64,000 bases of DNA from Eledone cirrhosa (taxonomy: Eukaryota). Of the stretch, positions 9,032-59,198 are shown in pieces. Made by a program: the position numbers and the translations under genes. The stretch is taken from the NCBI GenBank assembly GCA_964016885.1, contig OZ024764.1, forward strand, positions 17,670,001 through 17,734,000, in the 5' to 3' direction. Below the pieces are notes generated by a model. The model was not told the DNA's origin, made no database searches, and worked only from the letters and a program-made list of their open reading frames with translations. Position 1 is the stretch's first letter; each line of letters begins with the position of its first letter.

Positions 9032-9210
9032 GGAACCAGTAAGACCCCGACAGCTGAGCTCAAGGCGTTTCGACGGCTAATTCAGCCGTCGAAACGGCTT
9101 GAGCTCAGCTGTCGGGGTCTTACTGGTTCCTATTACCCACTCTACTACCTCAAGTATTGAGTACTTTGGTGCGTTATGGTCCACCTGGTTCCTTACCACA
9201 TTTCCTTCGT
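9032..9210 (+). mobile_element. Family A hairpin element (copy 1 of 10)
   Basis: ~100-bp palindrome ggaa...gtttcgacggct/agccgtcgaaac...ttcc plus 80-bp tail ending ttccttcgt; (TA)n both sides. Confidence 0.85.
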
Positions 9211-9397
9211 TATATATATATATATATAAATTACACAACACAATCAAAGTTATATATATGCTAGTTATATATATATATATATATATATATATATATATAT
9301 ATATATATATATATAAGGAATTGTTTCTTTGTTTATTCATTATTTTTTTAATAATTTATATATATATATATATATATATATATATATATATATATAA

Positions 9398-9657
9398 CTA
9401 GCAGATGTACCCGGCGTTGCTCGGGAAATGAATGACAGCCTGAATTGTTCAAGGTCGTTTATGGCTTAGCTAGCAATTTCTGAGTGCATGTCAGCTTATG
9501 TCAGCTAATGGGTTAGCCAATGAGAGCTTGCCTCAATAGCACGTGCCAAATCGGCCTAGTGCTTCAAAAGTTAAAAGGAGCCTAGTATTTGTACACAGAC
9601 AGACAGACAGACAGACACACAGACACACACAGACAGACTTGCTTTTATATATATAGA
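9398..9657 (-). mobile_element. Non-autonomous Helitron
   Basis: Minus strand: A|TCTATATATATAAAAGC start, internal (GTCT)n, subterminal hairpin CCCG-agcaacgc-CGGG, CTAG|T end. Confidence 0.85.
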
Positions 9658-9665
9658 TATTTATT

Positions 9666-9712
9666 TGCTGACAATTGTTTCTTCCAGAGGGATGTCTGGA
9701 TTCATCAGAGCA
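9666..9712 (-). ncRNA. Minimal hammerhead motif (family E, copy 1)
   Basis: UGCU-CUGAUGA-aUCCAGA(cauccc)UCUGGAa-GAA-ACAAUUGU-C/AGCA; palindromic stem III, GUC triplet. Confidence 0.78.
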
Positions 9713-9726
9713 TATATATATATATA

Positions 9727-9773
9727 TGCTGACAATTGTTTCTTCCAGATGGATGTCTGGATTCATCAGAGCA
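9727..9773 (-). ncRNA. Minimal hammerhead motif (family E, copy 2)
   Basis: Direct repeat of 9666-9712 at 61-nt period, one loop substitution. Confidence 0.78.
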
Positions 9774-10013
9774 TATATATATATATATATATATATATAT
9801 ATATATATATATATATATATATATATATCATATTAACAATATGTTATGCCATCTTCAGACAAAATACAATATAAACAGTCTGTGACCATATATATATATA
9901 TATATATATGGTCACAGAGACACAGAAACTCACACACACACACACACACACATATATATATATACACATATATGTTCACTGCTCCTTCCTCTTTCTTTTG
10001 TAAATCTCCATAG

Positions 10014-54707: not shown

Positions 54708-55605
54708 TGGAGGTGTGTAGCCCAGTGGTAAGGGTGTTGGCCTTACAATCACAATGTCGTGGGTTCGATTGCTGGGTTGTGGGTTGTGTTCTTGAGCAAA
54801 ACACTTCATTATAATCAGCTGAAAATGAGTACCAGTTATAGCTGGGGGTTTAATCCTGTGAAGGACTGGTGTCCTGTCCAGGGGGGAGTCTTGTACTTTC
54901 AGTCATTTAACACCACAGAAATTAAGATAAGTACCAGTTATAGCTGGGGGTTTAATCCTGTGAAGGACTGGTGTCCTGTCCAGGGGGGAGTCTTGTACTT
55001 TCAGTCATTTAACACCACAGAAACTAAGATAAGTACCAGTTATAGCTGGGGTTTAACTCTGTGATGGACTGGTGTCCTGTCCAGGGGGAGTCTTGTACTT
55101 TCAGTCATTTAACACCACAGAAACTAAGATAAGTACCAGTTATAGCTGGAGGTTTAACTCTGTGATGGACTGGTGTCCTGTCCAGGGGGGAGTCTTGTAT
55201 TCTCAGTCACTTCACACCACAGAAACTAAGATACTAAGATAAGTACCACTAATAGCTGGGGGTTTAATCCTGTGATGGACTGGTGTCCTGTCCAGGGGGG
55301 AGTCTTGTACTCTCAGTCACTTCACACCACAGAAACTAAGATACTAAGATAAGTACCAGTAATAGCTGAGGGTTTAACCCTGTGATGGACTGGTGTCCTG
55401 TCCAGGGGGAGTCTTGTACTCTCAGTCATTTAACACCACAGATACTAAGGTAAGTAGCAGTTATAGCTGGGGGTTTAACCCTGTGATGGACTGGTGTCCT
55501 GTCCAGGGGGGAGTCTTGTAGCCAACACCAAGGAAGTCACTTAACACCAAGGAAACCGGGTTAAGGACCAGCCTCTGGGCCCGAGACAAACTTTAGGCCC
55601 TTTAC
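54708..55605 (+). mobile_element. tRNA-derived SINE with its central domain amplified to 7 tandem units of 100-110 bp
   Basis: Head tagcccagtgg / gggttcgattg; units start at 54828, 54930, 55032, 55132, 55242, 55352 and 55453. Confidence 0.8.
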
Positions 55606-56170
55606 AGATTCACCACTCTAACAATAACATATAATAAAATAAAAATAGTTCGAATTGTAGTCGTCCTAACGCAAGAGATTTGAACTAACAGTGTAAAGGG
55701 TCGTAACTTAACACTAGAAATTATTTTATCCAACACAACACACTAATATTCTGTCACTCCACCCAGCCCCCTTTCTTGGGTTTGTGATAAATTAAGGCAC
55801 AGTGCAAGTATATGTATGTATGTATGTGTATATGTATATGTATATGTATATGTATATGTATGTGTATATGTATGTGTATGTGTATATGTATAGATATATA
55901 TATATATATATGTAAGTGTCTGTATGTATGTTTGTATATATGTGTGTGTATATGTATATGTATGTGTATATGTATAGATATATATGTAAGTGTCTGTATG
56001 TATGTTCGTGTGTGTTTTATGTATATATGTGCGTATGTATGTATGTTTGTATATATGTATGTGTGTGTATATATATATATATATATGCATGTATGTATGT
56101 ATAAATGTATACCTGTGTGTGTATGTACATATGCATGTATGTCTATATATATGTGTGTGTGTGTGTGTGT

Positions 56171-56353
56171 ACGAAGGAAGTGTGGTAAGGAACCAGGTGG
56201 ACCATAACCCAACAGAGTACTCAATACTTAGGGTAGTAGAGTGGGTAATAGGAAAAGAGTCAGGACCCCGACGGCTGAGCTCCTGCCTTTTCGAGTTCTG
56301 GTATAGCTGTCGAAACGGCAGGAGCTCAGCTGTCGGGGTCCTGACTATTTTCC
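56171..56353 (-). mobile_element. Family A hairpin element
   Basis: Homology and hairpin. Confidence 0.85.
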
Positions 56354-56912
56354 TTTATATATATATATATATGTGTGTGTGTATATATGTTTGTATTTAT
56401 ATATGAGCCAAAGCGGGATTCACTTGTTAGAAATAGCAGCCAAATATCCCTCAAATCACTGTCTTAAATGATAGCAGGACACTTCGTCTACGCGCGGCCG
56501 TGTGTGTGTGTGTGTCCGTGAGAATGTGTGTGTGTGTGTGTGTCCATGAGAATGTGTGTGTGTGTGTGAGAATGTGTGTGTGTGTGTGTGTGTGTGTTTG
56601 TTTGTGTGTGTTTCTGTGTCTGTGTGTCTGTCTGCGCGCACACACACAGACACACACACAAACAAACACACAGACAAACAGACACAGACACACACACACA
56701 GACACACACACACACACACACACAAACAAACACACACACAGACACACACACACACACACAGACAGACACACACACACAGACACAGACACACACACACACA
56801 GACACACACACAGACACACACACACACAGACACACACACACAGACACACACACACACACACACACAGAGACACACACAGACACACACACCTGTATGCGAT
56901 GTCCCGTTGACA

Positions 56913-57120
56913 AATAATTGTTTCTATTGGAGGCACAAGGCCAGCAATTTACAGGGAGATGTGTAGAAAGTCGATTAAATCGGCCCCAGTGTATTACTGG
57001 TACTTTATTTTATCAAACCCCTCGTAAGGATGAAAGGCAAAGTTAACCTCGGCGGGATTTGAACTCAGAACTTAAAGGGACGTAGCTCTATGCTGCAAAG
57101 TATGGTGTCCGATACTGGCA
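56913..57120 (-). mobile_element. Nin-like SINE
   Basis: Homology to 8353-8546. Confidence 0.8.
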
Positions 57121-58709
57121 AAATAATATGAATAATAATAATAATACTAACAACAACAACAACAACAACAGCAGTAACAACAACAGTAACAACAACAACA
57201 ACAGTAACAACAACAGTAACAACAACAGCAACAACAACAGCAACAGTAACAACAACAGCAACAGTAACAACAACAACAGTAACAACAACAACAACAGTAC
57301 AAGCTTTTCAAAACAAAAACAAAAGATAAACGCCAACATCCACCCCACCACCTCCTCTCCGCCACCCCACAAAACAAACTATGTTGGTATTGACGTGATT
57401 GTCTAAATATCTCTATTGTAGGGTGAGGCTCCAGCTAGGACGTGGCCCCACGAGGAACGCCAGATAGGAGGGTCTTATACATGAAAGTCATTCATCAAAG
57501 ATAGAAAACGTAATCGCGTGATTATAGTAAATTGATATATACACAAACACACATGTATATATATATATATATATGTATATATATATATATATATATATAT
57601 ATATATATACACACACCTGTGTGTATATATATAAGAGTGTGTGTGTGTGTCTGTGTTTGTTTGTGTGTCTGTGTCTGTTTGTGTGTGTGCGTGTGTGCGC
57701 GTGTGTGTGCCTGTGTCTGTGTTTGTGTGTGTGTCTGTGTTTGTGTGTGTGTGTGTGTGTGTGTGTGTGTGTGTGTGTGTGTGTGTGTCTGTGTGTCTGT
57801 GTATAGTCTAAGTACAGGTTTGTGTGGTCCCACGTTCAAATCTTGACCCCATTAGTGCGGGGTGCGCAATAAGAGCTGCCAGACTCCATAACGGATTTAG
57901 TTCTTATAACTTCGATTACCAATAAATAATATATATATATATATATATATATATATATATATATATATATATATATATATATATGTGTGTGTGTGTGTGT
58001 GTGTGTGTGTGTGTGTGTATCTATCTAGGGCGGGTAAAATCCCCGAGATCCATGGATGAGTTCTCTCCACCGGTCTCTGTCCCTCTTATTATCGCTGACA
58101 TCTCCAGCGTCTCCCAGAAATCAGTGTCTGTCCTTAGGGCATCAAAATATATATATATATATATATATATGTATATATATATATATATATATATATATAT
58201 ATATATATATATATATATATATATATATATATATATATATATGTATATATATAGATTTTGAGTATATGTTGGTTGTATACCAACACCTCAATATGCAGGT
58301 TGGAGCGCTCGACGAAGTGCGCAGGCTGGTTTGGTTACTCCGGAGTAATGTAAAATAAGATCTACTGTTTGAAGCGCTCAACCCGTGTGGGAGCTATATA
58401 TATATACACATATATATATATATATATATATATATATATATATATATATATATTTATTCATTTTATTCAGGATAAATAGAGAGATCCGGCTGTTTTTTCC
58501 GGATAAACAGACGAAGCTCCGGAGTAACAAGACTCACTCTTTAGCCGGAATAAAATGAATATATAATAGATATCTAAACTTTAATTCACACTAATGAATA
58601 CTCCTTTTCTCTCAGCGGTCGACTACATACAGATATATGTGTGTGTGTGTGTGTGTGTGTGTGTGTGTGTGTGTGTGTGTGTGTGTGTGTGTGTGTGTGT
58701 GTGTGTGTA

Positions 58710-59198
58710 GGAAAAGAGTCAGGACCCCGGCCGTTTCGACAGCTAGATCCGAACAGCTCGGATCTAGCTGTCGAAACGGCCGGAGCTCAGCCGTCGGGGT
58801 CCTGACTCATTTCCTTATTACCCACTCTCCTACCCTAAGTATTGAGTACTCTGGTGTCTTATGGTCCACCTGGTTCCTTACCACACTTTGTTATATATAT
58901 ATATATATTTATATATATTGTGAAATCGGGATTTAAAAAAAAGTGCCGGTAAACAGATAATAGTGGTGAATGTATGTGTGTGTATGTGTGTGTATACACA
59001 TACACACACAAACACACACACACATATATATATATATGTGTGTGTGTTACAAAGGAAGTGTGGTCAGGAACCAGGTGGACCATAACGCACCAGAGTACTC
59101 AATACTTAGGGTAGTAGAGTGGGTAATAGGTTCGGAACATTTCGGATCTAGCTGTTGAAACGGCCGGAGCTCAGCCGGCGGGGTCCTGACTCTTTTCC
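58710..59198. mobile_element. Two family A copies tail-to-tail: 58710-58891 (+) and 59049-59198 (-), each with a deletion in one hairpin arm
   Basis: Homology to 42012-42195. Confidence 0.8.

Follow-up and report, generated by a model that had tools for sequence, protein, structure and literature searches.

Penelope-like elements (PLEs) have been described to insert in a recurring pattern, in which an inverted, 5'-truncated copy and a one-sided tail are found at a microsatellite target (PMC8557442, PMC8969392). Self-priming was already proposed as the source of the inverted ends in 2013 (PMC3846280), and how these ends and the one-sided tail arise is still described as unsettled (PMC8557442, PMC11167929). 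Here we describe a family of short, hairpin-shaped repeats, termed Family A, in a 64,000-nucleotide stretch of the genome of Eledone cirrhosa (assembly GCA_964016885.1, contig OZ024764.1, positions 17,670,001 to 17,734,000 of the forward strand; ‘the window’, in whose own numbering all positions are given). Family A is real, likely derived from a PLE, and likely laid down in the known pattern. Its copies are very probably PLE 3' ends with heavy 5' truncation, and the PLE in question probably belongs to the (TA)n-targeting Hydra clade. The full explanation that we favour, with a probability of roughly 0.6, is that the copies are truncated PLE ends, most likely of the Hydra clade, and that each hairpin was made anew at insertion from two joined complementary DNAs (cDNAs).

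The insertions of canonical endonuclease-positive (EN+) PLEs (PMC3846280; Fig. 2 legend of PMC8557442) are like Family A in having, at the 5' end, an inverted copy in head-to-head orientation, and also in their one-ended tail, strong 5' truncation, microsatellite target and hammerhead-type motif near the 3' end. They differ in that Family A is only ~190 bp long and free of open reading frames (ORFs), that its tail measures 80 nt and not 30–40 nt, and that its truncations cluster inside the hammerhead, with loss of the 5' core. For the Hydra clade, PMC8557442 gives a (TA)n preference in 26 of the 27 families listed and a hammerhead ~50–170 nt from the 3' end (section 11, Files S1, S2 and S7); it also gives one member with an attached inverted 5'-truncated copy (Penelope-13_HM) and lists one octopus member. 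The hammerheads of this clade have an acag..ctgt-a stem III and a T-flanked stem II (PMC8557442), as does a sibling of Family A in the window, termed Family B, in which a canonical hammerhead is present near the 3' end; Family A has half of one. The (TA)n preference of Family A is that of the Hydra clade but is not diagnostic, because Naiads have it too. In motif searches of the PMC8557442 supplement only short motifs were identical to Family A, and the stem II predicted for Family A is much longer. The proteins of the Hydra clade are recognized by RWK, DKT and CxCX5C motifs, by the absence of CCHH and by reverse-transcriptase phylogeny; no protein was found for Family A in the window.

The Poseidon element PAc of Anolis carolinensis belongs to a different clade from Hydra. 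Purified PAc protein has been shown in vitro to cut and extend both target strands, with reverse transcription (RT) beginning at two sites, one at each border of the tail (PMC11167929). PAc uses an uncleaved RNA template, and the arms of Family A likewise run through the GUC site; in the available part of PMC11167929 the two starts are not tied to an inverted arm. Non-long-terminal-repeat retrozymes (bioRxiv 10.64898/2026.07.22.740005; for minimal hammerheads, PMC4209133) resemble Family A in being non-coding and PLE-derived and in having a type I hammerhead with a palindromic loop III. Their units are arranged in tandem and each holds a complete hammerhead, whereas Family A consists of dispersed single copies that are folded back and lack CUGANGA. 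In an octopus annotation PLEs are given as 6.83% of the genome in 190 families (supplement of PMC13282606), and the repeat library of that study may already include Family A. Neither the two-primer reading set out below nor the tail stem-loop was found in the literature searched, which is weak evidence of absence since most subscription papers and the Repbase and Dfam entries lay outside it.

A BLAST search of the whole window with the copy at 16300 (the type copy) recovered exactly ten copies of Family A and no others, at the coordinates given in an earlier reading of the letters alone (the original prediction), seven on the forward and three on the reverse strand (Table 1). Together they make up ~1.7 kb, or 2.7% of the window. 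Read with the tail at the right, the order is (TA)n, an inverted arm of ~45–57 nt, a short variable centre, a direct arm (GAAAC, stem III and GTC), the 80-nt tail and (TA)n. The inverted arm is present in nine copies and both arms in eight; the copy at 59049 has the inverted arm and tail only, and that at 41797, an example of a fixed 3' end combined with variable 5' truncation, has the tail only. The arm-bearing copies form two subfamilies, of five and four. The tail is found on the direct side only, and the inverted repeat excludes it. It ends against TA in eight copies and against AC/TG repeats in two, and a check for target-site duplications found the flanks to be (TA)n or mixed microsatellite. 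The type copy had been read correctly, letter for letter, in the original prediction. The inverted arm, which the original prediction had usually ending at TA-GGAA against (TA)n, borders on TA or a TA-rich repeat in 9/9 cases, and ends in TTCA in the copy at 17617, in CTCC in that at 48898 and in TTCC otherwise. In both subfamilies a TTAG, a possible splice acceptor, precedes GAAAC by 16 nt. The hairpins scored below threshold with microRNA precursor models, and the folding z-scores of seven short pieces were unremarkable.

The direct arm is, on sequence grounds, likely the 3' half of a PLE hammerhead, because it is colinear with the hammerhead of Family B and because the spacing from GAAAC to a stem-loop in the tail matches (48–49 nt in Family A, 47 nt in Family B). 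A descriptor of complete type I hammerheads had seven matches in the window but no match in 30 shuffled versions of it, and a wider descriptor added two hammerheads with stem II regions of 31 and 37 nt. Colinearity of the two families extends from GAAAC to the end; their global alignment score was met by 12, 10 and 16 of 2000 shuffles, and their shared 11-mer by 8, 6 and 7 of 1000. The half that is present has GAAA, a stem III with A15.1–U16.1 and a NUH triplet, with 86.7% of 90 cells paired and A–U in 13 of the 15 arms. As had been claimed, the position of the 5' core is empty: CTGANGA was not found in any copy (nine were scanned and the tail-only copy was read from its sequence), and the inverted arm stands there instead. 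The Family A copies are predicted to be catalytically dead, with the hammerhead half as a passenger. The idea of a decapitated PLE hammerhead is supported for the direct arm, and is only weakly supported for the stem II that was drawn with it (GACGGC../..GCCGTC).

Evidence on the natural stem II came from public sequence data of 4 out of 18 listed runs, which were aligned to the type copy (24292 reads in one; 20012, 2 and 3 contigs in the others). The family is abundant, 20012 contigs of a single run touching this copy, and its tail-less end is fixed genome-wide, with 3180 reads and 106 contigs passing into (TA)n after position 16412. A non-palindromic upstream continuation was found in 1245 and 1544 of the 24292 reads for the two subfamilies, departing just before the 3' strand of the stem II drawn earlier. 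In two contigs of a second organism CGGCTATTT lies ~30–35 nt upstream of its partner AAATAGCCG, and the stretch between the two is similar to a loose-end consensus from 25 contigs of the main organism (agreement 0.6). Because of this non-palindromic sequence and the CGGCTATTT/AAATAGCCG pair, a long natural stem II is likely in the Family A template, and the stem of the original prediction would be mostly the inversion's own centre. A set of 6939 read ends at 16359 coincides with an AATT site of a restriction-site-associated DNA library and was set aside as a likely restriction cut.

The centres of Family A are different in 9/9 cases, with filler in four, and the arms mostly end 2–19 nt upstream of GAAAC. 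By a manual count along the upstream sequence, the inverted arm extends further upstream than the direct arm in 5/9 Family A copies (three are opposite and one is unclear), in 3/3 Family B fold-backs and in 2/3 of those of another hammerhead-bearing sibling, Family H; over the three families it is longer in 10/15, shorter in three and unclear in two. In two Family H copies the tail-less arm contains the entire hammerhead and over 100 nt of sequence absent from the tailed arm. The fold axes of the siblings fall at unrelated sites, within CTGATGA, within stem I or downstream of the hammerhead. The inverted arm is in cDNA sense on the top strand from the left (TA)n, and the tail likewise on the bottom strand from the right; this polarity from both (TA)n sides is as two target-primed starts would leave it, and agrees with the behaviour of the PLE protein in vitro (PMC11167929). 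The arms differ on average at 2.6 sites within one copy (eight copies), at 4.8 between copies of one subfamily (26 pairs) and at 7.8 across subfamilies (30 pairs), and when the arms were permuted, pairings as close as those observed were obtained in 4 of 40320 cases overall and in 4 of 720 within subfamilies. The original prediction was right that the arms of a copy share variants; several of the variants that could be checked are common genome-wide subfamily alleles and not private changes.

A bulged stem-loop (ACTC, an upper stem, 2 nt, GAGT and RC) is common to Families A and B and four more repeat types, with upper stems that vary by family (TAC/GTA, TGC/GTA, CAG/CTG); its strict form is passed by seven of the ten Family A copies. 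In families A, B, C, H and I the tail-less end precedes it by ~6–9 nt, with two possible registers in C. There are 16 matches in the window against 0.06 per shuffled window, a figure to be read with the reservation that the descriptor was made after the motif had been seen, so that the matches in A and B, though not those in the other repeat types, are partly circular. The RCTC..NN-GAGY-AC shape is seen in 3/6 novel Hydra consensi as given (Hydra-2_Amil, Hydra-2_Ajap and, less cleanly, Hydra-1_Crog), in a match made only by eye; of the other three, two stop before the region and one is without the shape. The stem-loop likely marks the start of a second round of copying.

In the route that we regard as having a slightly better than even chance of having made the hairpins, the protein of the element would nick both strands of a (TA)n target. 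One nicked strand would serve as primer for a cDNA begun at the outer end of the tail, whilst the other would prime at an inner site 6–9 nt before the tail stem-loop and so give the tail-less arm. Both cDNAs would usually stall 2–19 nt upstream of GAAAC, on entering the long natural stem II, with loss of the 5' half of the hammerhead. End-joining, frequently with filler, would then unite their two 3' ends, and some centres may have eroded since. A head-to-head union of two cDNAs with separate primers is a better fit than one cDNA that folds on itself, because all the centres differ and because the inverted arm often lies further upstream than the direct arm, and a solo tail-less copy of Family B (5339–5474) supports the two-primer route. 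That Hydra-clade PLEs in general integrate by double target-primed RT, the tail stem-loop setting an inner start 6–9 nt upstream, the other strand starting at the tail end and the stalled cDNAs being joined, is a tentative proposal to which we give somewhat less than even odds.

In the snap-back reading, for which the original prediction had argued, a single cDNA starting from the end of the tail would come to a halt in stem II, turn back and use itself as template as far as the TA site; there it would be cut or joined, and the centres would erode afterwards. Self-priming has a precedent in PMC3846280, and nuclease resolution is put forward as a source of the tail in PMC8557442. A single self-copied cDNA would suit arms that are closer within a copy than expected by chance, a TTCA shared by both arms of the copy at 17617, and arms that both mostly stop within 2–19 nt of GAAAC; one contig has the centre AAAATC-T-GATTTT, which may lie on the apical loop of the long natural stem II (pieced together by eye). 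Snap-back alone cannot, however, give inverted-arm sequence that is missing from the direct arm, as in 10/15 fold-backs, and predicts neither the solo tail-less copy nor the junction filler; nor does it sit well with the copy at 59049, which has an inverted arm without a direct arm, or with the scatter of sibling fold axes. Priming at stem II is thus not the best fit, and we consider it unlikely. The point that arm-shared variants are often subfamily alleles would also suit hairpin masters, that is, read-through RNA of a whole fold-back unit that is reverse-transcribed from the tail and re-joined via the upstream (TA)n, as would the outer end fixed at TA and the one junction point common to the tail-less arms of two long Family H copies. 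Palindromic master copies, which the original prediction had offered as its alternative, are nevertheless improbable: no two Family A centres are alike, the joints listed (15 of 80) each occur in 1–3 contigs or at 1–2 read starts, and many reads have non-palindromic upstream sequence.

A palindromic DNA element, either like a miniature inverted-repeat transposable element or Helentron-associated, would have a TA preference and would resemble a hammerhead by chance. The hairpin shape, TA flanks and lack of an ORF agree with this, as does a half-hammerhead that is modestly above chance. The inverted repeat is one-sided, head-to-head and not terminal at both ends, as it excludes the 80-nt tail; the copy at 41797 is 5'-truncated to its tail, the centre varies against a fixed 3' end, and the tail motif is shared with siblings that have whole hammerheads, all of which make such an element very improbable. 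A coding frame across arm and tail was rejected, since a protein search gave 0/15 candidates and the variant sites, judged by hand, have no third-position bias. A Naiad partner, considered because octopus Naiads are marked HHR_half_core, was also rejected, with no match to one octopus Naiad 3' end or in motif searches. Exact Family A patterns gave no match in metagenomes, prokaryote genomes or viral contigs, and six short upstream motifs had no real match in the window.

Besides the reservations on the stem-loop given above, several results weigh against the two-primer PLE explanation. The half-hammerhead by itself is matched by 213 of 5000 shuffles, and the local alignment of Families A and B is marginal (94 of 2000 shuffles). 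Covariation in the proposed stem III was not borne out, with no compensatory, two-sided change in 15 Family A arms, although the family is young and the test low-powered; the tail stem-loop is 96% paired and likewise has zero two-sided changes in an 11-row alignment of A, B and C. No CTGANGA progenitor was found among the 30-nt upstream overhangs listed for reads and contigs, which end just short of its expected site. There was no Rfam hammerhead among 7 rows for Family B, 24 for Family A or the best 150 of 445 window matches listed; this negative is uninformative, as the complete Family B motif was missed too. In one contig the beginning of the direct arm is retained and the sequence then jumps to the tail, and later deletion at palindrome centres can also give unequal arms. 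The window ORFs and a protein search of one open frame gave no reverse transcriptase or GIY-YIG ORF and no autonomous partner, and the tail is longer than the 30–40 nt in print.

Table 1. Family A copies, parts of the type copy, and sibling repeats in the window.
Position	Strand	Feature	Basis
9032–9210	+	Family A, subfamily 1; inverted arm to −12, direct arm to −7 (nt upstream of GAAAC)	
16300–16489	+	Family A type copy, subfamily 1: inverted arm, centre, direct arm and tail between (TA)n tracts	
16300–16351	+	Type copy, inverted tail-less arm; cDNA polarity on + strand, directly continuing the left (TA)n	Sequence; polarity inferred from hammerhead orientation
16358–16409	+	Type copy, direct arm	
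16370–16392	+	Type copy, hammerhead 3' half: GAAAC, 5–6 bp stem III around palindromic GAGCTC, GTC triplet; no CTGANGA	
16410–16489	+	Type copy, one-sided 80-nt tail ending CCTTCGT against (TA)n	
16418–16443	+	Type copy, conserved bulged stem-loop ACTC-[upper stem]-TT-GAGT-AC, 6–9 nt past the tail-less end	
17617–17809	+	Family A, subfamily 1; TTCA instead of TTCC at the end of both arms	
41797–41890	+	Family A; 5'-truncated to the tail and the last part of the direct arm, not inverted	
42012–42195	−	Family A, subfamily 2	
44145–44332	+	Family A, subfamily 1; junction filler ATATA; sits in a Family B-like piece	
48898–49088	+	Family A, subfamily 1	
56171–56354	−	Family A, subfamily 2; 9-nt junction filler	
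58710–58891	+	Family A, subfamily 2; inverted arm with internal deletion	
59049–59198	−	Family A, subfamily 2; full inverted arm, filler, then tail; no direct arm	
5339–5570, 7304–7563, 45578–45697 (−), 47075–47270, 59332–59480		Family B: complete type I hammerhead, same tail stem-loop, variable fold-back axes	
5339–5474	+	Family B direct copy; complete hammerhead (5414), stops at the tail-less site; no tail, no partner arm	
7304–7563	+	Family B without inversion; complete type I hammerhead (CTGATGA at 7437) and tail stem-loop (7503)	
47075–47270	+	Family B fold-back; inverted tail-less arm, complete hammerhead in direct arm (47144), tail	
17836–18150	+	Family H fold-back (end approximate); 182-nt tail-less arm, complete hammerhead (17935, − strand); tailed arm starts inside stem II	
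42236–42470	+	Family H fold-back (end approximate); tail-less arm ~172 nt; tailed arm starts inside the tail stem-loop	

Further repeats of the window resemble these families. The three Family H copies (17836–18150, 42236–42470 and 54150–54371) have a hammerhead with the 31-nt stem II region, and two of them combine a long tail-less arm from an identical upstream point with a short tailed arm. Family C (35130–35555) is a 167-bp fold-back with GAAACAATTGTA and a tail stem-loop on the reverse strand (35208); its arm without CTGANGA is another hammerhead that is missing its 5' half. A fold-back at 14395–14802 has arms of ~200 bp with GAAAC-AGAGCTCT-GTC and a GAGCTC loop core in common with Family A, and an inverted repeat of 472 bp (98%) at 4037–5000 has a one-sided extension and, in either arm, a hammerhead-like motif that is complete (4811 on the forward and 4226 on the reverse strand). 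On the reverse strand, two ~60-nt tandem units at 9670–9780, each with a complete minimal hammerhead and with (TA)n between them, form a retrozyme-like dimer, and a half-hammerhead repeat with GAAACGCGCGTC (45380–45580) adjoins a Family B copy, with GCTAGATC upstream resembling the centre of subfamily 2. Small fold-backs or tails are found at 6107–6280, 46642–46791 and 47330–47470, with the tail stem-loop of Family A at 6198 and 47391 and a hammerhead with the 37-nt stem II region at 46653. A SINE-like (short interspersed nuclear element-like) repeat is present as a 400-bp inverted pair at 8358–8760, with further copies at 5568, 38007, 46953, 49640, 50060 and 56986, so fold-backs are not confined to the hammerhead families. 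The window also holds a long satellite array with a 41-bp period (18550–28500), adjoining an assembly gap, and a 19/21-bp satellite (560–3560) with a strand switch near 1770 that gives a kilobase-scale inverted arrangement.

Each Family A copy records both cDNA ends in less than 200 bp, so that the family provides a cheap natural dataset on which snap-back and two-primer copying can be compared. Its hairpins could mislead microRNA annotation. The tail stem-loop is a candidate signal for mutation in vitro and a tag by which unlabelled repeats may be classified. If the proposed integration mechanism is true, a single mechanism would account for both the inverted pseudo-long terminal repeat (pLTR) and the one-sided tail of PLEs, and a named RNA signal would be common to the families of Eledone cirrhosa and to Hydra elements of a coral, a sea cucumber and a copepod.

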